Shown: positions 20,881 to 39,964, counted from the stretch's first letter. The stretch is DNA of 39,964 bases from a virus (IMGVR_UViG_2711768042_000003); one strand, 5' to 3'. Numbers and translations are program-made. Notes: generated by a model not told the origin, from the letters alone.

Positions 20881-21477
20881 TTAATTAGTGATGCTGCGTG
20901 GCTTCATACAAATTTCAGAAATATGATTCTTTTCGTCCAAATGATGCTGGACATCATTTTTATCATCACTCAACAACTCTGCTGTTAATACAATCCCTGC
21001 TGTCTCAGATTTCCAGGAAATGCTGATATCCTGATCATCTGCATCAACATCATATTTTATCGAGTAAGGACTAAAGCTACGTCCAACGAACGCATCATTT
21101 ACCAGTACACGCCCACCCTGTCTGACCTGAAAGTCAACGCGCCCTGAAAGCTGATTTGCTGTTACAAGCAATGCCTTTTTTCTTTTTGTTTTATTGCTCA
21201 TTGCCACCAACTGTTCAGCCATCTCTCTTGTCACACTACCAGAAACTCTTTCTTGAATTTTCACAGAAAATTTTCTGGATGTAGTAGCATCGACATTAAA
21301 AAATCTGGATGTCATCAGGCAGTTATTAACAATTGGCATCAGCTCACTTACGATTGTAAAAAATTCCCGGTAAAGCTCATTTTGCTTTTCAACACACAGC
21401 TTTCCACAATCGTCCAGCTTACGCTCAAGAGCACTTAATCTTTCCATTATTGAATTAATTTTTTGCAACTCTTTCAT
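20881..21477 (-). CDS. hypothetical protein, AT-rich cargo gene
   Basis: 198-aa ORF with GGAGG RBS 6 nt upstream of the ATG; visibly AT-rich against GC-rich neighbours; no family recognised. Confidence 0.7.
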   Translation of the reverse strand: MKELQKINSIMERLSALERKLDDCGKLCVEKQNELYREFFTIVSELMPIVNNCLMTSRFFNVDATTSRKFSVKIQERVSGSVTREMAEQLVAMSNKTKRKKALLVTANQLSGRVDFQVRQGGRVLVNDAFVGRSFSPYSIKYDVDADDQDISISWKSETAGIVLTAELLSDDKNDVQHHLDEKNHISEICMKPRSITN

Positions 21478-21500
21478 CAAAACCTCCTGACAAAGATACC

Positions 21501-21518
21501 GTGCGACCACGGTCGCAC
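21501..21518. promoter_or_regulatory. centromere-like palindrome GTGCGACC-AC-GGTCGCAC (sopC-core-like)
   Basis: Perfect 8-bp arms, 2-bp spacer; one of five copies in the window. Confidence 0.55.
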
Positions 21519-21541
21519 GCTCCTGAATACATGCCCTGTTT

Positions 21542-21710
21542 CTTCCACCCTCGCACAGGACTGGCGAGCATGAGGGACAAACCCGCGAATCATTAGCGCG
21601 GTAAAAACCCGGTGTGCATCGTTTTTGATTATTTCCGCACACTCGCGCAGAGGAGTTCCCCGTCGGGCTACGGTCATGGTTAATGCGGAAATACGGCGAC
21701 GATGCAGCGC
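21542..21710. repeat. copy 2 of the duplicated ~170 bp element
   Basis: Direct repeat of 20591-20760. Confidence 0.75.
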
Positions 21711-21720
21711 GGTATTTAAT

Positions 21721-21738
21721 GTGCGACCACGGTCGCAC
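21721..21738. promoter_or_regulatory. centromere-like palindrome GTGCGACC-AC-GGTCGCAC
   Basis: Identical to the copy at 21501-21518. Confidence 0.55.
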
Positions 21739-25411: not shown

Positions 25412-25723
25412 ATGTTTAACGTGATAACCCACCCTGCAGCACTGGATGAACTGCTTGAACTACCAGATGATTTGCGAGGTCGCATGACCAGATTAATTGA
25501 GCGACTGGAGAAGGAAGGCAACAAACTGAAGATGCCCCATAGCCGTGTAATAGGTGGAGGGCTTTTTGAACTACGAGTAGGGGATAAAAACATCGCAAGA
25601 ACGCTGTACGCCTACGCGACTGGTAACGAAATTTATCTATTGCATGCATTTGTAAAAAAGACACAGAAAACACCGGTGAAGGCTATCGAAATCGCCAGAA
25701 CTCGCCTGAAGGAGATGAACTGA
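25412..25723 (+). CDS. RelE/ParE-superfamily toxin, Gp49/HigB-like
   Basis: 103 aa; GGAGG RBS; toxin-first order with ATGA overlap onto an XRE antitoxin. Confidence 0.75.
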   Translation: MFNVITHPAALDELLELPDDLRGRMTRLIERLEKEGNKLKMPHSRVIGGGLFELRVGDKNIARTLYAYATGNEIYLLHAFVKKTQKTPVKAIEIARTRLKEMN

Positions 25724-26010
25724 TGAAAGCGAAAGGCATCCCGTTTAACGAAGTAAAAGAAAAACTTCTCAACACTCCAGAAGCCATCAAAGGATATGAA
25801 GAGGCCGATAAAGAGCTGGAGATGGTCGAAATGTTATACGAAATGAGGGAAAGAGCAGGTTTAACGAAGTCAGCTCTGGCTGAACGAATGGGATTGCGCC
25901 CGTCAGCTATCAGCCGCCTGGAAAGCAATCCTTTAGGGGCAAGCATGAAAACTTTATCAAAATATGCCCAAGCATGCGGTGCAACGATTAATATTAATGC
26001 CGTCTATTGA
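25723..26010 (+). CDS. HTH XRE-family antitoxin (HigA-like)
   Basis: 95 aa with XRE-type HTH (LTKSALAERMGLRPSAISRLE). Confidence 0.75.
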   Translation: MKAKGIPFNEVKEKLLNTPEAIKGYEEADKELEMVEMLYEMRERAGLTKSALAERMGLRPSAISRLESNPLGASMKTLSKYAQACGATININAVY

Positions 26011-26312: not shown

Positions 26313-26514
26313 GGTAAAACTCAAATTTTATAGCCAACTTTCAATGGATTAACTGGTTAAATATCTTTGTAGTCCGATACTTATGTTCCCTTCCTACGCC
26401 TCGCCCAACCACTTTCAAAAGCCCATCACCACCATCAGAAAAGCTCTTTTCGCTCCGTTTTCGTATCATTTCAAAAAGCAATGCCTTTTTGTCCATTTAT
26501 CCCTCCGTGACCAG

Positions 26515-26841
26515 TCACACTTTGAGCGCAAGTTTCAGCCTCGTGGTTGTAAGGTGGCATGAGCCTTCACCATCAAAAATGCATTCTGAAACAGGCATTT
26601 TTTGACCACATCGCGGACAAGTAGTAGATAGCTGTTTCTGCAACTCCTTATAGTTTTTCCTGATCAGCAGTCCGATGACTTCGTTCTCTGAATATGGAAC
26701 TCGCCCTGGTCTACGCAATACACAAATTTCCCCCAACATACGTAACTCGTCAGGTTCCAGAATCCAGTCACGTCTTGATGTTCCTTCCTTCTTCAACCGT
26801 TCCCTGCGTCTTCTTTGCCGTTCTGCCGGTGTCAGCGCCAT
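26515..26841 (-). CDS. hypothetical protein with Arg-rich N-terminus and Cys cluster
   Basis: 108 aa; ERQRRRRERLKK at the N-terminus; CPRCG...C...C motif. Confidence 0.55.
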   Translation of the reverse strand: MALTPAERQRRRRERLKKEGTSRRDWILEPDELRMLGEICVLRRPGRVPYSENEVIGLLIRKNYKELQKQLSTTCPRCGQKMPVSECIFDGEGSCHLTTTRLKLALKV

Positions 26842-30501: not shown

Positions 30502-30739
30502 GCTTACGGCTCTCCTTAATCGACTGCTTTACCCGCCGAGTTGTAAAGTCACTCTTCAGCTTGTAAGCAGTACGAACTTCAATATCACTTTGCCGCAATG
30601 AAGGAATCTCTCCAGCGGTTAACCATTGGTAAACAGCACCGGGTGTTACACCTACCCCAGCCGCTGCTTTTTCTACACTGCCAAAGTGGCGAATAAGTTC
30701 TTCTGGTTTCATGCGGTTATTATAAGCAATAAATCGCAT
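30491..30739 (-). CDS. cro: Cro-like HTH regulator
   Basis: 82 aa with HTH (VEKAAAGVGVTPGAVYQWL), divergent from the CI-like repressor; start may be the internal Met at 30712. Confidence 0.7.
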   Translation of the reverse strand: MRFIAYNNRMKPEELIRHFGSVEKAAAGVGVTPGAVYQWLTAGEIPSLRQSDIEVRTAYKLKSDFTTRRVKQSIKESRKRGA

Positions 30740-30740
30740 T

Positions 30741-30780
30741 TAAAGCCAGCTATAATAAATAAATTTTATAGCCAGCTATA
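30741..30780. promoter_or_regulatory. immunity operators: two 14-bp sites TAAAGC-CA-GCTATA and TATAGC-CA-GCTATA
   Basis: Inverted-repeat half-sites, centres 26 bp apart, between the divergent repressor genes and overlapping TATAAT-like hexamers. Confidence 0.55.
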
Positions 30781-30803
30781 AGAAGATCATTTATGATTAA
30801 GCT

Positions 30804-31400
30804 ATGAAAACACGAGGCGAACGACTGAAAGCACGCCGTTTAGAGATGAAGCTGACGTTGCGAGAAGTTGCTGAGGCTGTCGATATCTCTATTGCAGGCG
30901 TCCAAAACTTAGAACGTGGCGACGTAATGCCGTCACTGGAGATAGGTATTGCCCTGGCTAAATGCTTACGCAAGCCAGTGCATTGGGTGCTGTATGGGAC
31001 AGAATATGACCCTGATCGCATTCCTGTTATTGGCACAACTGAAAGTGGACCTGATGAAGAGTGGAAGCCAGGACAGGTTCCAAATACTGAGCGATTCCTG
31101 CCATTCATCAGCCAGCGCAATACTGTTTATGCGTTAACTATCAGCAATCTGGCGCAGGGAAACTATCAGCCAGGCGATTTTCTCCTGGTCGATTCTGCGC
31201 TGGAACTGGTTCCCGGCGAGGATGTTCTGGTTCGTGATACTGCAGGAAATATCACCATCCAGCGCCTGGCCCGTTTTGATGATGAAAATTACTATCTGGA
31301 CGGAACAAATTCACAACGCGCCATCTTCAGGAAAAGCGATCTTGAATTTGTTCACCAAATAGTCGGAACGATCAAATCATTCATGGTTGAGGGTAGATGA
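30804..31400 (+). CDS. CI/LexA-like prophage repressor (HTH plus S24-like C-terminal domain)
   Basis: N-terminal XRE HTH; C-terminal LexA-like fold; Gln where the catalytic Lys is expected (ITIQRL). Confidence 0.85.
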   Translation: MKTRGERLKARRLEMKLTLREVAEAVDISIAGVQNLERGDVMPSLEIGIALAKCLRKPVHWVLYGTEYDPDRIPVIGTTESGPDEEWKPGQVPNTERFLPFISQRNTVYALTISNLAQGNYQPGDFLLVDSALELVPGEDVLVRDTAGNITIQRLARFDDENYYLDGTNSQRAIFRKSDLEFVHQIVGTIKSFMVEGR

Positions 31401-31501
31401 CTTAATACGGGGTTTATTGTTTGCTGTAAATCTGGTTTAATGCAGAGCATATGTTCTGTGGGTTGACTCAGGTTACAGCAGCAGAAAAAAGACGAAAAAA
31501 A

Positions 31502-31530
31502 ACCCGAGTCGGCAAACTCGGGTCCTTTTC
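31502..31530 (+). terminator. hairpin plus U-run downstream of the repressor
   Basis: Stem ACCCGAG/CTCGGGT, then CCTTTT; A-run upstream allows bidirectional use. Confidence 0.5.
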
Positions 31531-31645
31531 AGGAAGCAGCCACAGTAACGCGACGGATTCCGTCAATTCAAGATGCGTTTATTGTGGCTGCTCCTGCGGA
31601 TTTTTTCAACCCGAAAAAACATAATTCGCATGGAATGGCTAAAAA

Positions 31646-34600
31646 ATGACATTAAACGATTTCTATGCGGATCGCTTTGGCAGCGATCCGTTCTCGCTAA
31701 TTGAAGCAGCACGGGATGAACTAACCGAGCTGGCACAGATGGCTGGTATCAACTGGTCTGCCTGTTCCGACAACATCCAACTCAACCCTCGCGGGGGTGT
31801 TGAGCGTTACTCTTCATACAATAAAACATCTCCAGAAGCTCTCGAAAAGAGCCTCAAAGGACGCGTAGAAATTTACTCCCGGCTGGAACACAGCAAAGGG
31901 ATTGATTACCCGTTCATTAACTTCGTCCATAAAGGCAGCGATGCTGGCTCATGGAGCGGTTTCTCCTTCCTGTTTTCTGAATATCGCCGTGAGCAACAAC
32001 GGAATAATGCGACCGTGGTCGCACAACCGGAAGAAGAACGGGCAAGAATAGAACGTCAGGCCGAAGCACGTCGTCGCCGTGAAGAACAAAAACGAATTAA
32101 TGACCTGAAAAACAACCAAATGGACCATGAACGTTTGCTGGGATGGCTGGCATTCCACAGCGCGTGGGAACATGCTCCTGCAGAAGACGGCTCATGGCCA
32201 TATGCGATTAAAAAAGGTATTCGTGACGTTTTTAATTCGTGTGATGTGCGTCGCGTGACCAGTCACGACAGCGCAAAATGGAGCAGGGGGCCAACCACGT
32301 ATATGGCTATCCCTCTGGCTCACCTGGACGGTCGTTACGATGGTCGTATTGTGGGTTGGCAGCGAATCGACAAACAAGGTGGAAAATACCAGACCAGCGC
32401 CGTAACCAGCGGCGATTTCGTCGGTGCCTGCTTTGTTATCGGTGAGCTAAAAGGGGCGCAAAACATCGCTGTTACAGAAGGTTTTGCTACTGGTGCATCC
32501 ATCTGGCTTGCCACGAAAAAAGATAAACGCTTTGACGCTGTGGTTGTCGCTGTATCCGCTAATAACATGGTTCATGTTGTGGAACAACTGGTAAACATGT
32601 ACCCGGCGGCAAAAATCACCTGCGCACTGGATAATGACCGGAAATCAGCCACAGAAGGAAAAGGGAATACCGGCCTGCGGACTGGCTATGAAATCTTATC
32701 GAAATTCAACGATGTCCGCTGCGTCTATCCAACTTTTGAAGACGATCCGCAAATGGAGTGCAGTGACTTCAACGACCTGCACAAACTGCGTGGACTTCGT
32801 GAAACAGCACGTCAACTGTTTGCAACTGCAAACCGCCTGAAAACCGGCACTGATTTGCTATCTCTGACGCTCAACCGCCTGAAGACAATTAAGCGGGATA
32901 ACCGTCGTACTTTTGCCAAAGAGCTGCTGAGAGCGGTGGATATTGGCATGCTAACCTGTCCGGTTCCTAACAGTCCGTCAGACTTATTTAACATGTTCTG
33001 CATCGTTCTGCGTGAAATGGGGCTGGAAAATATCTATCGCGCTACGGTAAAAGACCACATTGCCCGTCGCCTGAATAAAAAGTGCCGTATTGCCCAGGCT
33101 CCGCGCTCATTCAGCGAACGCATAACTGATCCCAATAAACGTCCTCAACATATCACCTATAAGCGTTTTGAAACTTCGGTAATGACCGATGACGTCCTGA
33201 AGTATGTGCAATCACTACAGGGGATAGTCATCGTTCGTGCTGGTATGGGTTCCGGCAAATCTACTGGATTGTTACGACCTTTAATGCATAGCTCAGAACG
33301 TGGTATCTCTGTTGCTCACCGTGTTTCCCTTATTGGTGGCCTGTGGGAAATGATGACAGAAGGAAAAGGTGTAAAAGCCGATATCCTGCACTATCAGGAC
33401 CCTGGCTATCAGGAAATGGCTCCATACGCCAGTAAACTGACCATCTGCATAAACTCGATTGTTAAAAACTGCTGGCAACCGTTGATGCGCCAGCACGACT
33501 ATTTTGGCTTTGACGAGGCCACGCAAGGGCTACGTGCCGTTCTTTCCGGTCGGGCTATGGAAAACCCGGTGGCTGTATTCAATACGTTAATCGACGCGCT
33601 GGCCAGAACGGAACAACACCCAATAATGGTGGATGCTGATGCGAACGATCTGCTGGTTGACCTGGCTGAACTGGCTATGAAACGCCGTGAAGAACTAGGT
33701 TTACCGGCATGGCTGCAGATCCACGTAATTGAATTACCTGTTGATGTTCGCAACCGCGAAACAGGTGAGCCAATCCGGGTTTTTTATACAGAAAAAGATC
33801 GCATTATGACCGAGGTGGTGAAAGCTGTATCGGATGGCGAAAAAATCATGTTGGCCACCGACAGCTCCACCTTTGCAGAAGATGTGACAGCCACCCTGAG
33901 AATGCATTTTCCTGGTAAGAAATTTCTGTGTGTAAACCAGAAAAACAAACCAGAGCCAGAAGTTGAAGCATTTACCAATCAACCGAAAAAGATGGTCAAA
34001 AAATACGACGGCCTGATTTATAGCCCGTCTATTTCATCCGGTGTGTCGATTGAGCAAAAACATTTTGACCGTCATTTCGGCATGTTCTGTGGTGAAGTTG
34101 TACCCAGCGACGCAGTGCAAATGCTACGCCGCGACCGTACAGCAAAAGAATTTATTATCGGCTTTGATAAAGCTCGCGCAAAACGTGAAACTGACCCGCA
34201 AAAAATAGAACGAGCATTCGCCCAGGCATTGCTTGCTACCGCAGGCATGAACGGTGAACTGACGGATGTCGTTTTCGATGGCGACCGTATATCAATGGGG
34301 GTGGCCAATACCGACTTTACCAGGATGAAAATTAAAGCAGCCGCAATTGAAGCGTCTGCGCGTAACGACTACGCCAGCAACATGATCTGCATCATGCACA
34401 GCGACGGTTATAAGGTATCGCCGCTGGCCACCGATTATGCTGCGAATGATATCGGTAAAGATCTGCGTAAAGAAGCGCGGGATATTGTGTGGGAACAGAC
34501 ACTGGATCTGCATCTCAATACAGAAACTCCACAAGAATCAGAGCGTGAAGAACTGCTAAAAAAACGCGCGCTGACGCTTGAAGAACAAGCAAAACTTGTC

Positions 34601-35641
34601 CGCTGGGATATTGAGAACGAACTGAAACTACCGGTTGAAGAAGGCACGCTGAAATTCTATTTCGATGGTGCTCGAGACAAAGTTCGCCGCTATGAAACAA
34701 TGCTTTTAGATGAGGTAACAGCTCGTCGTTACGACCGGGAAGAAGCAGCCATCAATTTTACCTACGCATACCGTCAGGCGGGACAGTGGCAATATTTTGT
34801 AGTGACCGCGATGACTCGCGAGCAGGCTGATGATGTCTTTAAAACTAAATTCCCTGGAATAATCGACTACAAGGTAAAAGCTACTCCTACTGTTGAAGTC
34901 GGGGCGCGCGGTTTCTATGCGCTTAAATCAGCAACTCTCCGGCAGTACTTTATCGACTGCGGTATCAACCCTGAGACTATGACCGGCGAGGCGACTCAGG
35001 AGCGTCTCAAATTCGCTCGAGATAACCTCATGACAGCCGAACGCCGTGACCTGTTGAATAACGTTCTGCACATTGGTGGTTTTATGACGCCAAAAGGGAA
35101 GCCTAAAGTGCCGGAAGCGTTGTTTAAAAACATTTGCGACTCTCTTGGCCTTAAAACAGGTAAACGTCGCGGCAGAGACGGCGATAAGCGTCCAACCTTG
35201 CGTTTTGTTGAGCCTGAATCAGCGGCATTTATGCTGGATATTCTTGTTCAGCGTCAGAAAGATGGCCTAACCCTAAAAACGCGTAAAGCCGAGAAGACAG
35301 CCATCGAAATGGATCGCGATTTGGATCTCAATATATATATGGATGATAAAACGCGATCCACAAACGAGCAGGTTCAAAACGCCCCTCATTCAGTAATTTC
35401 TGAGGCTTTGGCCGTATTGCCGGTGGCTGTTCCTGAGTCCTGGGCGATGAGTGCGCTTTCCGGTGAGGAGCTGGCCACTATGTCATCATGGTCATCAGCC
35501 AGCATAGCTATGACGTTTGCATCTCTGTATCTCACAGAGTTCATGGATCACTTGTCCAGCAATGAATTGCGGCGGTTACGAGAATACATTACCGGGAATA
35601 GCTCATGCAGCTACGAAGAGCAGGGCGCTTTCTATGGGTAA
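31646..35641 (+). CDS. repA: multidomain replication protein RepA (primase Toprim plus P-loop helicase)
   Basis: 1331 aa; Toprim motifs (VTEGFATG, DND); Walker A GMGSGKST; Walker B FGFDEA. Confidence 0.9.
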   Translation: MTLNDFYADRFGSDPFSLIEAARDELTELAQMAGINWSACSDNIQLNPRGGVERYSSYNKTSPEALEKSLKGRVEIYSRLEHSKGIDYPFINFVHKGSDAGSWSGFSFLFSEYRREQQRNNATVVAQPEEERARIERQAEARRRREEQKRINDLKNNQMDHERLLGWLAFHSAWEHAPAEDGSWPYAIKKGIRDVFNSCDVRRVTSHDSAKWSRGPTTYMAIPLAHLDGRYDGRIVGWQRIDKQGGKYQTSAVTSGDFVGACFVIGELKGAQNIAVTEGFATGASIWLATKKDKRFDAVVVAVSANNMVHVVEQLVNMYPAAKITCALDNDRKSATEGKGNTGLRTGYEILSKFNDVRCVYPTFEDDPQMECSDFNDLHKLRGLRETARQLFATANRLKTGTDLLSLTLNRLKTIKRDNRRTFAKELLRAVDIGMLTCPVPNSPSDLFNMFCIVLREMGLENIYRATVKDHIARRLNKKCRIAQAPRSFSERITDPNKRPQHITYKRFETSVMTDDVLKYVQSLQGIVIVRAGMGSGKSTGLLRPLMHSSERGISVAHRVSLIGGLWEMMTEGKGVKADILHYQDPGYQEMAPYASKLTICINSIVKNCWQPLMRQHDYFGFDEATQGLRAVLSGRAMENPVAVFNTLIDALARTEQHPIMVDADANDLLVDLAELAMKRREELGLPAWLQIHVIELPVDVRNRETGEPIRVFYTEKDRIMTEVVKAVSDGEKIMLATDSSTFAEDVTATLRMHFPGKKFLCVNQKNKPEPEVEAFTNQPKKMVKKYDGLIYSPSISSGVSIEQKHFDRHFGMFCGEVVPSDAVQMLRRDRTAKEFIIGFDKARAKRETDPQKIERAFAQALLATAGMNGELTDVVFDGDRISMGVANTDFTRMKIKAAAIEASARNDYASNMICIMHSDGYKVSPLATDYAANDIGKDLRKEARDIVWEQTLDLHLNTETPQESEREELLKKRALTLEEQAKLVRWDIENELKLPVEEGTLKFYFDGARDKVRRYETMLLDEVTARRYDREEAAINFTYAYRQAGQWQYFVVTAMTREQADDVFKTKFPGIIDYKVKATPTVEVGARGFYALKSATLRQYFIDCGINPETMTGEATQERLKFARDNLMTAERRDLLNNVLHIGGFMTPKGKPKVPEALFKNICDSLGLKTGKRRGRDGDKRPTLRFVEPESAAFMLDILVQRQKDGLTLKTRKAEKTAIEMDRDLDLNIYMDDKTRSTNEQVQNAPHSVISEALAVLPVAVPESWAMSALSGEELATMSSWSSASIAMTFASLYLTEFMDHLSSNELRRLREYITGNSSCSYEEQGAFYG
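32008..32025. promoter_or_regulatory. centromere-like palindrome inside repA (outer base of one arm mismatched)
   Basis: ATGCGACC-GT-GGTCGCAC, encodes NATVVAQ in the RepA frame. Confidence 0.45.
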
Positions 35642-35829
35642 TCAGTGGATATTATCTTTGTGTCTCTTGCTTTGTGTGTTCCAGCAATGGTTTTGGTTCA
35701 TAGATCGAAAGTCTCACAAGGAAAACATGAAGGCCAGGAAGGCGATGTTTCGTGGTGAACAACTCGCGCAGACTTATCGTATGTGGAAACGCTTCTATCG
35801 TGATTTTTCGGTGAACGGGGAGTAAAAAT

Positions 35830-36156
35830 ATGTCTACTACTGCATTTTTGGACAAACTTGATTACCGTCAGCTGCAGTTCTGCCGGGATGAATGCGATCG
35901 ACGCATTAAGGCTATCCAGGAGGAAGAAAAAAAGGTCGCCTGGGCTGTAACAGATCGTGGCCTTATCTTTGGCTGGTTCCGTACGGAGGATTACCTGAAA
36001 GCAGTGGAATTATTGGCGCGTAAGGCTGCTGAGCGTTGGGAACGAGCCGACAAGGAAAACCCGGAGACGAAGTATGAACTGAATCTCTACATCGAGGGCA
36101 ACCGTCTACCATTGTCAGAGTATAACGCTTTGTTTGCTGATGGTGAGTGGGGTTAA
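35830..36156 (+). CDS. hypothetical protein
   Basis: 108-aa ORF, first of three co-directional genes after repA. Confidence 0.5.
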   Translation: MSTTAFLDKLDYRQLQFCRDECDRRIKAIQEEEKKVAWAVTDRGLIFGWFRTEDYLKAVELLARKAAERWERADKENPETKYELNLYIEGNRLPLSEYNALFADGEWG

Positions 36157-36554: not shown

Positions 36555-36581
36555 GTTGTGATAACTGTTACAGGAGATAAA

Positions 36582-36869
36582 GTGAAGAGTTTTATTTTGG
36601 TTTTATGTTTTGCCTTTTCTGCTGCGGTTTATGCCCAGGAAGATAGCATTTCTGTTATTAACTCATCAGCGGAGCTTGCATGTAAAAATAATCCCGATGC
36701 TGCATCAAAAGAATCATGCAAAGAACTGCTCCTTTCGACGGCTGCTTTTGCTTCTGAAAATGCGAAATTTTATTCAGCCTTCTGTCGCGGCTATGTTAAG
36801 GAAGAAGATAAAGAAAAATGTGATGATGCCGGTAAGTTAGTTAGGTATTTCCACTCTCTTAATCCGTAA
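36582..36869 (+). CDS. small secreted protein (signal peptide)
   Basis: GTG start with AGGAG RBS; signal peptide VKSFILVLCFAFSAAVYA-QE; four Cys in the mature part; ATG at 36558 is the alternative start. Confidence 0.5.
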   Translation: MKSFILVLCFAFSAAVYAQEDSISVINSSAELACKNNPDAASKESCKELLLSTAAFASENAKFYSAFCRGYVKEEDKEKCDDAGKLVRYFHSLNP

Positions 36870-36970
36870 TGGCCTTTGATTAACGATCAACTTCTGATCA
36901 CTCGTTCAAGCAAACTATAAAAACACCTGTCCCCGTGACTGGTCACGGGGTAAAATGTCTTTGCAAATTA

Positions 36971-37083
36971 TTGACGTGTGCGTCGTTTTGGAGGTAAAGT
37001 CACCTCGCTGCGGTAAATCCCGCAGTCGGGACTTCGCAATCCTGGCAAAACGAAGCGCACAACACGCGCCAGCGTGTTTTTTT
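36971..37083 (+). ncRNA. candidate small regulatory RNA (c4/CI-like) with promoter and terminator
   Basis: Possible -35 TTGACG, 18 bp, -10 TAAAGT; stem-loop 37008-37025; terminator ACACGC-GCCA-GCGTGT plus U-run at 37062-37083; no long ORF. Confidence 0.35.
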
Positions 37084-37249
37084 GTGTGTATAGACCTGCG
37101 CATATCCGAATTATGGTGGCTCAGGTGGGGCTGACTTCGGTCGGGCCGGTTTCTTCGTTTACCGGTATTGCGAACCCCGCCTGGGCTACCACCAATAAAG
37201 AGATTCGCAACTCTGGTGGTAGCACGACCAATAAAACGGAGTGCATACC

Positions 37250-37414
37250 ATGTTCAAATTCAAATTTGCGGCAGTCGTTCGCACAGACAAAAAGTCCCAC
37301 ATTCATCATCTTTCCACTATCGCGTCATCTGAACGGGAAGCTCGTCGCCAGTTCGCCAGCCGGTTTGTCCTGGTATTGTCTGCCCGTATTCCGGTGCGCG
37401 AGGTGGCTGCATGA
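37250..37414 (+). CDS. small ORF (54 aa), first of three translationally coupled ORFs
   Basis: GGAG RBS; sequence MFKFKFAAVVRTDKK; stop overlaps the next start as ATGA. Confidence 0.45.
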   Translation: MFKFKFAAVVRTDKKSHIHHLSTIASSEREARRQFASRFVLVLSARIPVREVAA

Positions 37415-37644
37415 ATCAGGTAAAAATGAACACTGTTGGCCTGCTGGAATCGTTGGATGAACGTCTGGCTCAGGTCTATGCGCTCGTATCATCAGCCCAT
37501 CGGACAGTCTCCAGTTGTGAGGCGTCGATTTACCTCTCAGAGGCTGGAAAACTTCTGCAGATTGCGTGTGAGTTAACGCATGAAGCACAGGGATATTCTG
37601 CGTCTCTCTCGTCGCACTTGCTGCGCGATAAGGAGGCTGAATGA
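37411..37644 (+). CDS. hypothetical protein (77 aa)
   Basis: ATGA overlaps at both ends. Confidence 0.5.
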   Translation: MNQVKMNTVGLLESLDERLAQVYALVSSAHRTVSSCEASIYLSEAGKLLQIACELTHEAQGYSASLSSHLLRDKEAE

Positions 37645-37850: not shown

Positions 37851-39764
37851 TTATCCGAAATATGTCAGCCATGCTAACTGCATTGCTGATATAGGGCTGT
37901 TTGCACTGCCGGACCAAGCATAATTCTGGCCATTATAATGAAATTCAACAACGTATGATCCATCACCAATATTTCTCACAGGCTTAAATACCGGCTTAGA
38001 TACAGGTGAAGAAGGCGCGGGCGGTTGCTGTTCTTCTACGCTCTCTTCCTCTTCCTCTTCCTCTTCCTCTTCCTCTATCTCTATCTCAATTTCGTCGTCA
38101 TCCAGATCGTCATCCTCTGATAATTCATCCGTCTGTTCAGGTATTGCTTCCAGCTCTTCTTCGTCAGGCATAACGATTTCTGGAGAATCTATTTTCAGCT
38201 GCCATTGTCCATTTTCGCCAACAAATTGCCCCAGAGCATCAGCAGCAAATTCTAGGTATCGACTAATCATTGTAGGGCTAAATTTGAATGCTCTTAGAGT
38301 GCTGTTCGTGATTTTTATAGAGGGGTCCTGCTCTACCAGCTGCTTAACTGTGTTATGCAGACGAACTCCGGCATCTCCTCTGGCGAATCCTGGCATTTCG
38401 TCATCAAGCTGCTGCAATGCTTCCAGCCTGGTATTTTCGTTTCCAGTATTTGGCCTCCATGTCTTTGAGAAGTTGGCCAGCTTGAATTGCTTATAGTGTA
38501 ATTGAGTGTTTTCATCGTCATGGCCTAAAATTTCCATAAAGAAAACATCCTCATCTACGTTTTTCCAACGAGGATCTACGCGGAAAAACATTTCATACGC
38601 AATACGGGCATAAATAGCACGACTATCTTTATAAACACGGCGGTCATCTTTGAAAAATGATTTAACCCACGGGTTAAAAGCCTTTGCTAATATGGCATTA
38701 ATCCGTCCGTTTTCAGAGCGTGTGTCGTTATCTCCATAACCTTTAACGACATCATCAAAATCAGATGCTGCTGGGCATGAGCGAAGTACATTTATTAAAT
38801 AAACAAATGTTTTTGCTTCGCATAATGTATATATTTTTCTGGTTATATCATCAGAAGTTCTTTTTTTTGCTTGGCCTAAAAAATCAACGGTATACTTACC
38901 AGAAACAGTAAATGTACCTTGATACATAATCTCAATCATTCGTCTTCCTGACAATGCAGCAAGTGCAAATGCCAAAGGAGCCATACCTGAACGAGTGTTT
39001 AGATTATTTAATGTAGCAGGGCTATTTATAATATCGTAAATAGCTTGCATATATTTGGGGTAATCAATGACCACCACGTTACGTTTCTTATTGTGCAGAA
39101 CGTCCGCCCATCGTTGCTGGATAGATGCGCGTTCGGCAGGGCTTAGTTGAAGATGATAGAGAATCTCATGGTTAACTTTTAGCTGATTCAACTCCTCAAG
39201 TAAGGCAGATCCTTGCTGTAGTAATTTATATAAATAATCGCGCTTATCTTTCCAGTTATCGCTAGTTAAATCAGAAATGGCGAATTGCCACTCTTTATAT
39301 TTATTTGATAATTTTAATAACTTATTATGATTTTTGTTATCGCCAATTCTGATATTAGATAAATCTTCTGATAGAGGGAGAATTAATTTTAATTTTGCCT
39401 GTAAAGCTGACATTCTCTGGCGAATATCGGCAGCAGGTAGAGAAAGCCATGATAATAGCTCCTCATTATATAAAGGATACTTTTCAGATAGGCGATGTAT
39501 ATTTTTTTCAAAGCTATGATGAAGTTTATCATCAAACCGTTTTCTGGCCCTGCTCATATAGGCATTGAATGTGTTCGCTGTAATTCTTTTTTCTAATCCT
39601 TTACCCCTAAACTTTCGCTTGTCATTAAATAATGCATTTTTAAATTTTAATGCAACAGCCTTTATTTTTTTTGTTTTCTCCCCTTGAGGACGGTCAGAGT
39701 TATCTATTGACTCAACATCGCTAACAAGTGAGTTTATTAATTCACCGATTTTTACTTTGCTCAT
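37851..39764 (-). CDS. telN: protelomerase (telomere resolvase)
   Basis: 637 aa; N-terminus MSKVKIGELIN and long conserved blocks match N15 TelN as I recall it; AGGAGAGG RBS. Confidence 0.95.
   Translation of the reverse strand: MSKVKIGELINSLVSDVESIDNSDRPQGEKTKKIKAVALKFKNALFNDKRKFRGKGLEKRITANTFNAYMSRARKRFDDKLHHSFEKNIHRLSEKYPLYNEELLSWLSLPAADIRQRMSALQAKLKLILPLSEDLSNIRIGDNKNHNKLLKLSNKYKEWQFAISDLTSDNWKDKRDYLYKLLQQGSALLEELNQLKVNHEILYHLQLSPAERASIQQRWADVLHNKKRNVVVIDYPKYMQAIYDIINSPATLNNLNTRSGMAPLAFALAALSGRRMIEIMYQGTFTVSGKYTVDFLGQAKKRTSDDITRKIYTLCEAKTFVYLINVLRSCPAASDFDDVVKGYGDNDTRSENGRINAILAKAFNPWVKSFFKDDRRVYKDSRAIYARIAYEMFFRVDPRWKNVDEDVFFMEILGHDDENTQLHYKQFKLANFSKTWRPNTGNENTRLEALQQLDDEMPGFARGDAGVRLHNTVKQLVEQDPSIKITNSTLRAFKFSPTMISRYLEFAADALGQFVGENGQWQLKIDSPEIVMPDEEELEAIPEQTDELSEDDDLDDDEIEIEIEEEEEEEEEEESVEEQQPPAPSSPVSKPVFKPVRNIGDGSYVVEFHYNGQNYAWSGSANSPISAMQLAWLTYFG
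38045..38074. repeat. hexanucleotide repeat (CTTCCT)x5 inside telN
   Basis: Five perfect tandem units; encodes part of the poly-Glu linker on the minus strand. Confidence 0.8.
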
Positions 39765-39928
39765 CTTTCCTCTCCTGATTATCCGCTCGGATTATCGTAA
39801 CACAATTTGAGAATAAGATAACTAATAACGCGTTAACTTAGTCACAAATTAACATAACACAATAACGGATAATAAATAAAAACACAATATCGGAACATTA
39901 AAATTTGTTCCTTGACTTTGTTCTGAAA

Positions 39929-39964
39929 ATCAGCACATAATTCCCCATTATACGCGCGTATAAT
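39929..39964. other. telomere-resolution palindrome (telO-like); window ends 9 nt past its centre
   Basis: ATCAGCACATAATTCCCCATTATACGCG|CGTATAAT; perfect palindrome centred between 39955 and 39956. Confidence 0.7.

Follow-up and report, generated by a model that had tools for sequence, protein, structure and literature searches.

The stretch considered here, nucleotides 31401 to 35641 of a viral DNA of 39,964 nucleotides (IMGVR_UViG_2711768042_000003; this whole sequence is called the window below), carries repA, the gene of a 1331-amino-acid replication protein, together with the structured leader that precedes it. We consider it highly probable that this region serves an N15-like (Ravinvirus-type) linear plasmid-prophage as its module for replication and copy control, with the initiator RepA, a control region in the leader and, inside the gene, a centromere-type palindrome equivalent to site IR1 of N15, all arranged as in the model presented at the end. 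A point that weighs against too firm a reading is that the experimental support for the model comes from N15, phiKO2 and PY54, to which this phage is connected by sequence comparison. The module is already known and its exact sequence is already in GenBank and RefSeq: 31401-35641 is 100% identical at the DNA level, and so without any difference, to Escherichia phage PhiR46_1 (PV340565.1; from E. coli ECOR13) and to several RefSeq E. coli plasmids, e.g. NZ_CP126957. Those records label the gene 'primase protein' or 'plasmid replication protein, CyRepA1 family', and none of them annotates the IR, the origin or any element of the leader.

RepA and its genomic setting

The reading frame had been predicted at 31646-35641 on the plus strand, with Toprim primase motifs and a Walker A/B nucleoside triphosphatase (NTPase) in a single polypeptide of the N15 RepA type; the coordinates proved exact, and the protein corresponds to this description. 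Its features are as follows.

31646-35641, plus strand: repA, 1331 amino acids, replication initiator, ATG start (list of open reading frames (ORFs), PHROG 4913, orthology with N15 and phiKO2)
32003-32842, plus strand: DnaG/T7-gp4-type primase domain, about residues 120-399 (Toprim_3, PHROG, motifs, structure model, Foldseek)
33218-34747, plus strand: superfamily 2 (SF2) helicase/NTPase domain of the UL9/CyRepA1 type (CyRepA1, Herpes_ori_bp, Walker motifs)

RepA shares 76% identity over 1319 residues with N15 gp37/RepA (GenBank AF064539, U45242, U63085) and with phiKO2 gp35, and 49% over its full length with PY54 RepA, each of these three alignments spanning about 99% of the protein; identity falls to about 30% for the RepA proteins of VP882 and phiHAP-1. 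PHROG 4913 ('replication') also matches over the full length. The N15 protein has the same primase plus SF2 helicase architecture from end to end and differs in its C-terminal tail. In the phage studied here, the last 15 or so residues (35560-35641) are variable among otherwise close orthologues (EQGAFYG, QRQAVAI, TDEALAV, SDEFCVV), and such divergent endings suggest recombination breakpoints at the 3' end of repA.

For the N-terminal part, the catalytic glutamate and the DxD motif of DnaG/TOPRIM primases are present within a Toprim core at residues 274-383 (E278, D329-N-D331, D374-F-N-D377), and PHROG 'DNA primase' families match residues 106-399 with E-values down to 4e-35. A homologue search with residues 100-420 gave 22 hits, mostly fragments and too few for a survey of the family; in the 13-row alignment of distant primases/helicases built from them, the TOPRIM signature EGFATGAS (E278), the DxD (D329, D331) and DFNDLH can be recognised as conserved motifs. 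The AlphaFold2 (AF2) model of the same residues has a mean predicted local distance difference test (pLDDT) score of 83.7, and its best Foldseek matches in the PDB are the primase domain of T7 gp4 and the RNA-polymerase domain (RPD) of Mycobacterium tuberculosis DnaG (E 8e-7 to 1e-4). The annotation with hidden Markov models that the original prediction had proposed as a check thus places the primase through PHROG, and what speaks against the assignment is that Pfam Toprim_3, over residues 274-383, scores 22.4 bits, under its gathering score of 27.2. The helicase lies above threshold: NCBIfam CyRepA1 covers residues 525-1034 (E 1.2e-76), and Pfam Herpes_ori_bp covers residues 522-674 with 25.2 bits (gathering score 20). 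Both Walker motifs could be read from the alignment, Walker A as GMGSGKST at residues 533-540 (nucleotides 33242-33265) and Walker B as FDEAT with D623-E624 (nucleotides 33512-33517), and a PDB sequence search gave weak matches of the NTPase to the herpesvirus origin-binding protein. The likeness to herpesvirus UL9 and cyanobacterial CyRepA1 proteins is one of the SF2 NTPase core; unlike RepA, these proteins are without a fused primase, and their origin recognition is unrelated. Residues 1-200 and 1034-1331 gave no Pfam match.

One could also suppose that RepA is a primase-helicase of the P4-alpha type, or that replication needs other phage initiators of the lambda O/P kind, or loaders, encoded elsewhere. 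Its primase region has Toprim_3/Toprim_4 motifs in common with proteins labelled 'putative DNA primase/helicase'; the other domains of those proteins, DUF927 and DUF3987, we take to be P4-alpha-like. A P4-alpha protein has an SF3 helicase C-terminal to the primase, but residues 522-1034 of RepA match SF2-type models only, of the UL9/CyRepA1 kind and not SF3. As for dependency on other genes, the possibility that the original prediction named as contrary to it, we looked for homologues of O, P, DnaB and DnaC, and neither the non-structural ORFs of the window nor the annotated genes of the identical PhiR46_1 record yielded any. Moreover, published minimal replicons require repA alone: in PY54 and N15, repA by itself gives circular replication, and repA plus telN plus the telomere site (telRL) gives linear replication (PMC10612081). 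We therefore hold both suppositions to be very improbable. The N15 and PY54 RepA proteins are SF2 helicases with an N-terminal DnaG primase whose replicative function has been confirmed experimentally (PMC4889955), and the domain matches, the structure model and this analogy, which is what speaks for enzymatic activity, support RepA as a DnaG-type primase fused to an SF2 helicase, i.e. an N15-type initiator.

The genomic setting is of the same type. repA lies directly downstream of a gene for a CB-type repressor (cB, 30804-31400, plus strand, 198 amino acids; Pfam HTH_3 with E 3e-11 and a weak Peptidase_S24 match), 78% identical to N15 CB, in agreement with the predicted proximity to the immunity repressor. 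About 4 kb away are telN (37851-39764, minus strand) and the hairpin telomere; N15 has the same neighbours, cB upstream and telN downstream of repA. The window stops inside the telomere palindrome (...CCATTATACGCGCGTATAAT), which occupies 39925-39964 (CCATTATACGC / GCGTATAAT). Since it extends 9 nt beyond the palindrome centre, the source assembly must have read around the hairpin end; and, since it ends in this half-site and encodes TelN, the window represents an N15-like linear plasmid-prophage from the tail genes to one hairpin end. It is in essence the reverse complement of the PhiR46_1 prophage, from the telomere inward. In several RefSeq plasmid records of 61-75 kb the repA region is present twice, which probably reflects this read-around artefact on a larger scale.

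Outside the identical records, phage YDC107_1 matches the 4.2-kb region with 94.6% identity and Klebsiella N15-like phages with about 78%, and N15 DNA matches the first 1.4 kb only, the rest being too diverged for megablast. A search with the leader alone matches 214 PLSDB plasmids, of which 176 are from Klebsiella and 28 from Escherichia. Among 5426 complete E. coli genomes, 18 contain the whole module, plasmid-borne each time, and all 23 E. coli matches are located on plasmids.

The repA leader and its long hairpin

Because cB ends at 31400 and repA starts at 31646, the leader is 245 bp long, the length originally given. The leader was predicted to contain a long-range inverted repeat that could attenuate or regulate repA. 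This hedged proposal fits the annotation of the N15 leader as a regulatory region; the repeat is there, and the CB operators, a bidirectional terminator and an antisense promoter had been missed. Between cB and repA, the N15 record U45242 annotates the promoter PL with two CB operators, a terminator hairpin, 'Pinc; promoter of putative antisense RNA' and a ribosome-binding site (RBS). Every one of these elements aligns with the window, in the same layout.

31413-31452, plus strand: repA promoter PL, -35 TTTATT at 31413-31418 and -10 TTTAAT at 31436-31441 (alignment to U45242)
31414-31429: CB operator OL2, TTATTGTTTGCTGTAA, overlapping PL (alignment to U45242)
31437-31452: CB operator OL1, TTAATGCAGAGCATAT, overlapping PL (alignment to U45242)
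31495-31530, both directions: rho-independent terminator hairpin, stem CCCGAGT/ACTCGGG (scan, N15 annotation, 13 relatives)
31530-31596, plus strand: long leader hairpin, 67 nt (-37.7 kcal/mol, z = -7.0)
31581-31609, minus strand: Pinc-type countertranscript promoter, -35 TTGAAA at 31609-31604, 17-nt spacer, -10 CACAAT at 31586-31581 (consensus scan)
31596-31645, plus strand: third leader hairpin (GCGGAUUUUUUC...AAUUCGC), pairing with part of the ribosome-binding region (fold)

The -10 of PL and the TA-N10-TA frame of the operators are kept in 13 relatives, the set used for all leader comparisons below. In N15 and phiKO2, CB binds OL1 and OL2 and copy number falls (PMC4997575); by analogy, we infer that CB of this phage binds OL1 and OL2 over PL. 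The inner bases of the operators, as well as the loop and left arm that would form the antisense target, differ between N15 and the window, and immunity and incompatibility specificity may therefore differ too. For PY54, only a single CB-type operator has been reported (PMC4488713).

Farther downstream, the leader combines a promoter convergent with PL and a terminator for its transcript, as expected of countertranscript control. The Pinc hexamers are identical to those of N15 and invariant in the relatives, and the predicted antisense RNA, of about 80-90 nt, would run from about 31574 to about 31487, ending at the terminator, with a fold z-score of -4.1 (that of the whole sense leader is -4.7). 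The terminator hairpin is likewise invariant, and in the N15 record it is entered as ending two transcripts, that of the repA leader and the antisense RNA. With its T8 tail it is strong when read as antisense, and the consensus scan calls the minus direction only. Several points count against this view of the leader. In the sense direction the terminator has a weak tail (TCCTTTT); U45242 itself calls the antisense RNA no more than 'putative'; and a permissive Rfam scan of 30700-36000 gave over the leader no more than a sub-threshold NsiR1 hit on the terminator, so that no known RNA family covers the leader. In the literature searched, no paper was found on an effect of an N15-type antisense RNA on RepA level, copy number or incompatibility.

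The inverted repeat had been described as two 9-nt arms, of which the left, GCAGCCACA, is indeed at 31536-31544; the right, TGTGGCTGC, is at 31583-31591 and not at 31586-31594, that is 3 nt to the left of the position first given. Taken as a bare 9-mer match it is weak, 17 of 100 shuffled sequences yielding at least two such matches, but it extends to arms of 14 nt (31535-31548 and 31579-31592) that are 93% complementary and form the stem of the long hairpin, the right arm of which contains the -10 of Pinc. Among the relatives, some 50 nt that span the right arm and Pinc do not vary at all; variation within the leader is highest in the left arm and loop, where indels also occur. The RNAalifold consensus of the 13 leaders retains the hairpin, and the lower 13 bp of the stem are found in all of them. 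The substitutions are one-sided, C to U giving G-U pairs, with no compensatory pair and a covariation term of +0.47, a point against the model; since the right arm is invariant, this test can neither prove nor disprove it. The PY54 leader, of about 250 nt and unrelated in sequence, has the same architecture, with an antisense-direction terminator hairpin followed by a long hairpin at the same place, the right arm of which holds TACAAT on the antisense strand (leader fold z = -4.6).

Two other explanations of the hairpin need to be weighed. The first is that it acts mainly as a sense-strand transcriptional attenuator, terminating repA transcripts at the U6 run (31601-31606) that follows 4 nt after it; the antisense RNA would modulate this termination by pairing with the left arm. 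In favour of this, the hairpin has great stability, all left-arm substitutions preserve G-U pairing in the sense RNA, a UCC/GGA extension read from the sequence would carry the stem to the U-run, and in PY54 the repA RBS is immediately preceded by a hairpin that, in the sense direction, has a U8 terminator. On the other hand, the consensus scan did not call the long hairpin as a terminator, the minimum-energy fold locks the U-run into the third hairpin, the N15 depositors assigned the leader terminator to the upstream hairpin, and no compensatory covariation is seen; we regard attenuation as the main function as rather unlikely. Another possibility is that the repeat has no structural role, the right arm being conserved solely as the -10 and spacer of the antisense promoter, with a complementarity that is incidental or acts at the DNA level. 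The coincidence of the invariant 50 nt or so, which include the 3' flank, with Pinc would be accounted for in this way, as would the tolerance of the left arm to indels and mismatches in phiKO2 and Enterobacter-type sequences and the non-significance of the 9-mer match by itself. It is less easily reconciled with a lower stem kept in 13 sequences out of 13 through wobble-compatible changes, with the z-score of -7.0, or with the recurrence in PY54, in an unrelated sequence, of a long hairpin carrying TACAAT in its right arm on the antisense strand, and we find it improbable. From the comparison and the folding we conclude that the inverted repeat is real and is conserved as a structural element in a control region of the countertranscript type. 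It has a predicted regulatory role, possibly in attenuation, antisense recognition or translation, and its right arm is under a double constraint, since it both pairs with the left arm and belongs to the promoter. The left arm and loop, which vary, would probably be the antisense target that determines specificity.

The third hairpin covers part of the RBS region, CATGGAATGGCTA at 31629-31641, which was placed by alignment to the N15 annotation; its covariation cannot be assessed because all its positions are invariant. A 57-amino-acid ORF at 31451-31624 was rejected as a gene, its frame being broken among the relatives by indels of 1-3 nt in the variable region. Just inside repA, at 31668-31690 (codons 8-15), there is a perfect inverted repeat of 9 nt (CGGATCGCT / AGCGATCCG) that has two GATC sites; it falls within a stretch of depressed synonymous variation, and may be a structure of the translation-initiation region or a DNA site.

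DNA sites inside the repA gene

Three elements of the coding sequence appear to be conserved as DNA.

32008-32023, no strand: sopC-type centromere palindrome TGCGACC-GT-GGTCGCA, orthologue of N15 IR1 (sequence and position)
32254-32267, no strand: 14-bp palindrome CGTGAC-CA-GTCACG, called pal2 below, codons 203-208 (invariant run in 10 orthologues)
35305-35366, no strand: probable core of the replication origin, 3' end of repA (repeats, AT-rich core, N15 homology)

A centromere-like palindrome in the 5' part of repA belonged to the original prediction. It is present, as the orthologue of N15 IR1, and is 16 bp long, the end first given, 32025, being 2 nt too far. Its form is GTGCGACC-NN-GGTCGCAC, with a core that matches N15 IR1 and IR4 exactly, and there are five copies in the window, dispersed at 21502, 21722, 24762, 29565 and 32008, the last being that within repA, where 0.28 would be expected (none of 100 shuffled sequences reached five). 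N15 carries four such sites at homologous places, IR1 occupying the same repA codons, 121-126. In the codon alignment of 10 repA orthologues, only 56% of the nucleotides are invariant; no more than three invariant runs reach 14 nt, and the 15-nt core TGCGACCGTGGTCGC is among them. Synonymous variation is depressed around it. At the same codons PY54 has CTGGGACCACGGTCCCA (TGGGACC-AC-GGTCCCA), a site of the F-plasmid type with GGGACC arms, and the fact that it lies there despite a different encoded peptide argues for selection on the DNA site. The homologous site of phiKO2 is annotated 'putative plasmid partitioning site' in its record.

N15 IR1-4 are centromere sites bound by SopB, and the IR1 oligonucleotide used carries the flanks of the repA-internal site (PMC7205306, Table 4); the location of a centromere site within repA of N15 has also been reported elsewhere (PMC2847241). 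The F sopC repeat has the same geometry, 7-nt arms and a 2-nt spacer, and reads TGGGACC-AC-GGTCCCA, against TGCGACC-AC/GT-GGTCGCA in the window; N15 SopB, which is 49% identical to F SopB, binds F sopC too (PMC7205306). The arrangement is different: F has 10 tandem copies at one locus, whereas the window has single dispersed copies, one of them in coding sequence. A reservation is that sopAB are outside the window; the cognate ParA/ParB genes are at 43667-45822 of the identical PhiR46_1 record, at the other prophage end. Position and sequence support 32008-32023 as the orthologue of IR1, and by analogy with N15 it would be bound by SopB. As an observation apart, two of the five palindromes, 21502-21517 and 21722-21737, are only 220 bp from each other, which brings the window to five sites where N15 has four; the extra copy falls in or near a 285-amino-acid ORF (20881-21738) with no Pfam match.

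At the other end of the gene, within the last 350 nt, three 11-bp repeats of the GATCCA type are found, two in the same orientation (35305-35315 and 35317-35327) and one inverted (35356-35366), with an AT-rich core, AATATATATATGGATGATAAAA, in between; the inverted pair TGGATCGCGATTT / AAAACGCGATCCA thus surrounds an AT-rich palindrome. The core has 23% GC, and the spot is unique in the 40-kb window in having three GATC in 70 bp. The DNA of this segment is conserved across orthologues while the encoded peptide varies. Ziegelin et al. (2005) reportedly placed a 212-bp origin of PY54 in the 3' part of repA. The homologous N15 segment has three 11-bp repeat_region features in U63085.1, at the same 3' position, with an AT-rich core that is a different variant, and bidirectional replication of N15 is initiated within the repA gene (PMC2847241). 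Because of the repeat and AT signature, the DNA conservation, the repeats of U63085.1 and this last report, we take 35305-35366 to be the probable origin core. It has to be held against the exact coordinates, where we infer function, that they rest on a sequence signature and on 'repeat_region' features entered without a note in an old N15 record.

The third element, pal2, lies in the longest invariant nucleotide run of repA (19 nt, 32252-32270) and in its sole run of at least five invariant codons, again among the 10 orthologues. Further copies of the family form CGTGAC-CA/TG-GTCACG are found at 26506-26519 (one mismatch) and 36934-36947, and N15 (locus L021) has pal2 at the three homologous positions (33236, 39268 and 28549). 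A scan of viral contigs with the 14-mer gave more than 120 hits, mostly chance single matches; the informative contigs are those with two or three matches, some at the 4680-bp spacing that separates two copies in the window. The annotation and literature searched contain no description of pal2; looking for its sequence in the literature retrieved unrelated primers only. It is possible, if doubtful, that pal2 is an undescribed cis-element of N15-like phage-plasmids. At the matching repA position PY54 has, where the N15-like phages carry pal2, a 4-codon insertion encoding a sopC-like palindrome, and it has a further perfect sopC-type site between tel and ORF33. Two of the corresponding positions in PY54 carry genuine sopC-like palindromes, and pal2 could represent a further type of protein-binding site that arose from centromere sites of the sopC type.

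Some 25 nt downstream of the copy at 36934 is a promoter-like site, followed by matches to isrK-like and C4 antisense RNAs, i.e. the immA anti-immunity region. These matches reach the Rfam gathering level at 37007-37196 on the plus strand (isrK, 37007-37082; C4, 37109-37196), and the stretch, a P1/P4-like RNA immunity (immA) region, adjoins an Ash-family ORF. For ORF 37074-37460 the listed GTG start, which overlaps these RNAs, probably lies too far upstream.

The module and its neighbours

Other features of the window may be noted. For the cB-cro intergenic sequence (30740-30803), the alignment with N15 and phiKO2 is limited to the OR3 and OR2 operators (TTATAGCCAGCTATAA, TTAAAGCCAGCTATAA); the OR1 part falls in the listed cro ORF, of which the first ATG is probably not the real start. 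At 25412-26010, plus strand, a two-gene cassette encodes a Gp49-like protein (HigB-type toxin family) and an HTH_3 protein, and looks like a toxin-antitoxin pair on the plasmid-prophage. Finally, a 103-amino-acid ORF at 36558-36869 (plus strand) has a hydrophobic N-terminus and no Pfam match, and is called 'Spackle exclusion protein' in the PhiR46_1 record.

In the model that we propose, RepA would open and prime an origin located inside the 3' end of its own gene, replication would proceed bidirectionally, and TelN would resolve the replicated hairpin telomeres. Expression of repA would be controlled at two levels. At the first, CB from the neighbouring gene would repress PL through OL1 and OL2, as has been shown for N15 and phiKO2. 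The second would consist of the structured 245-nt leader with its bidirectional terminator and an antisense RNA of about 80 nt driven by Pinc, complementary to the terminator and to the left arm and loop of the long hairpin. The right arm would double as the -10 region of Pinc, and the left arm and loop, as antisense target, would probably set the specificity of the control. IR1 would be one of five dispersed sites by which SopAB segregate the low-copy plasmid.

Research on N15 RepA, its CB-controlled leader and its dispersed SopB sites goes back to the 1990s, and these elements underlie commercial linear cloning vectors (pJAZZ). The practical value of the present analysis is better annotation, as the public records of this lineage say 'primase' or 'CyRepA1 family' and omit the operators, the terminator, the antisense promoter, the centromere site and the origin. 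As for pal2, if our reading of it is true, it could tie partition, or another DNA-binding factor, to repA and to the control of the anti-repressor operon. For the family as a whole, the variable antisense-target segment and the operator differences suggest that several immunity or incompatibility types exist.

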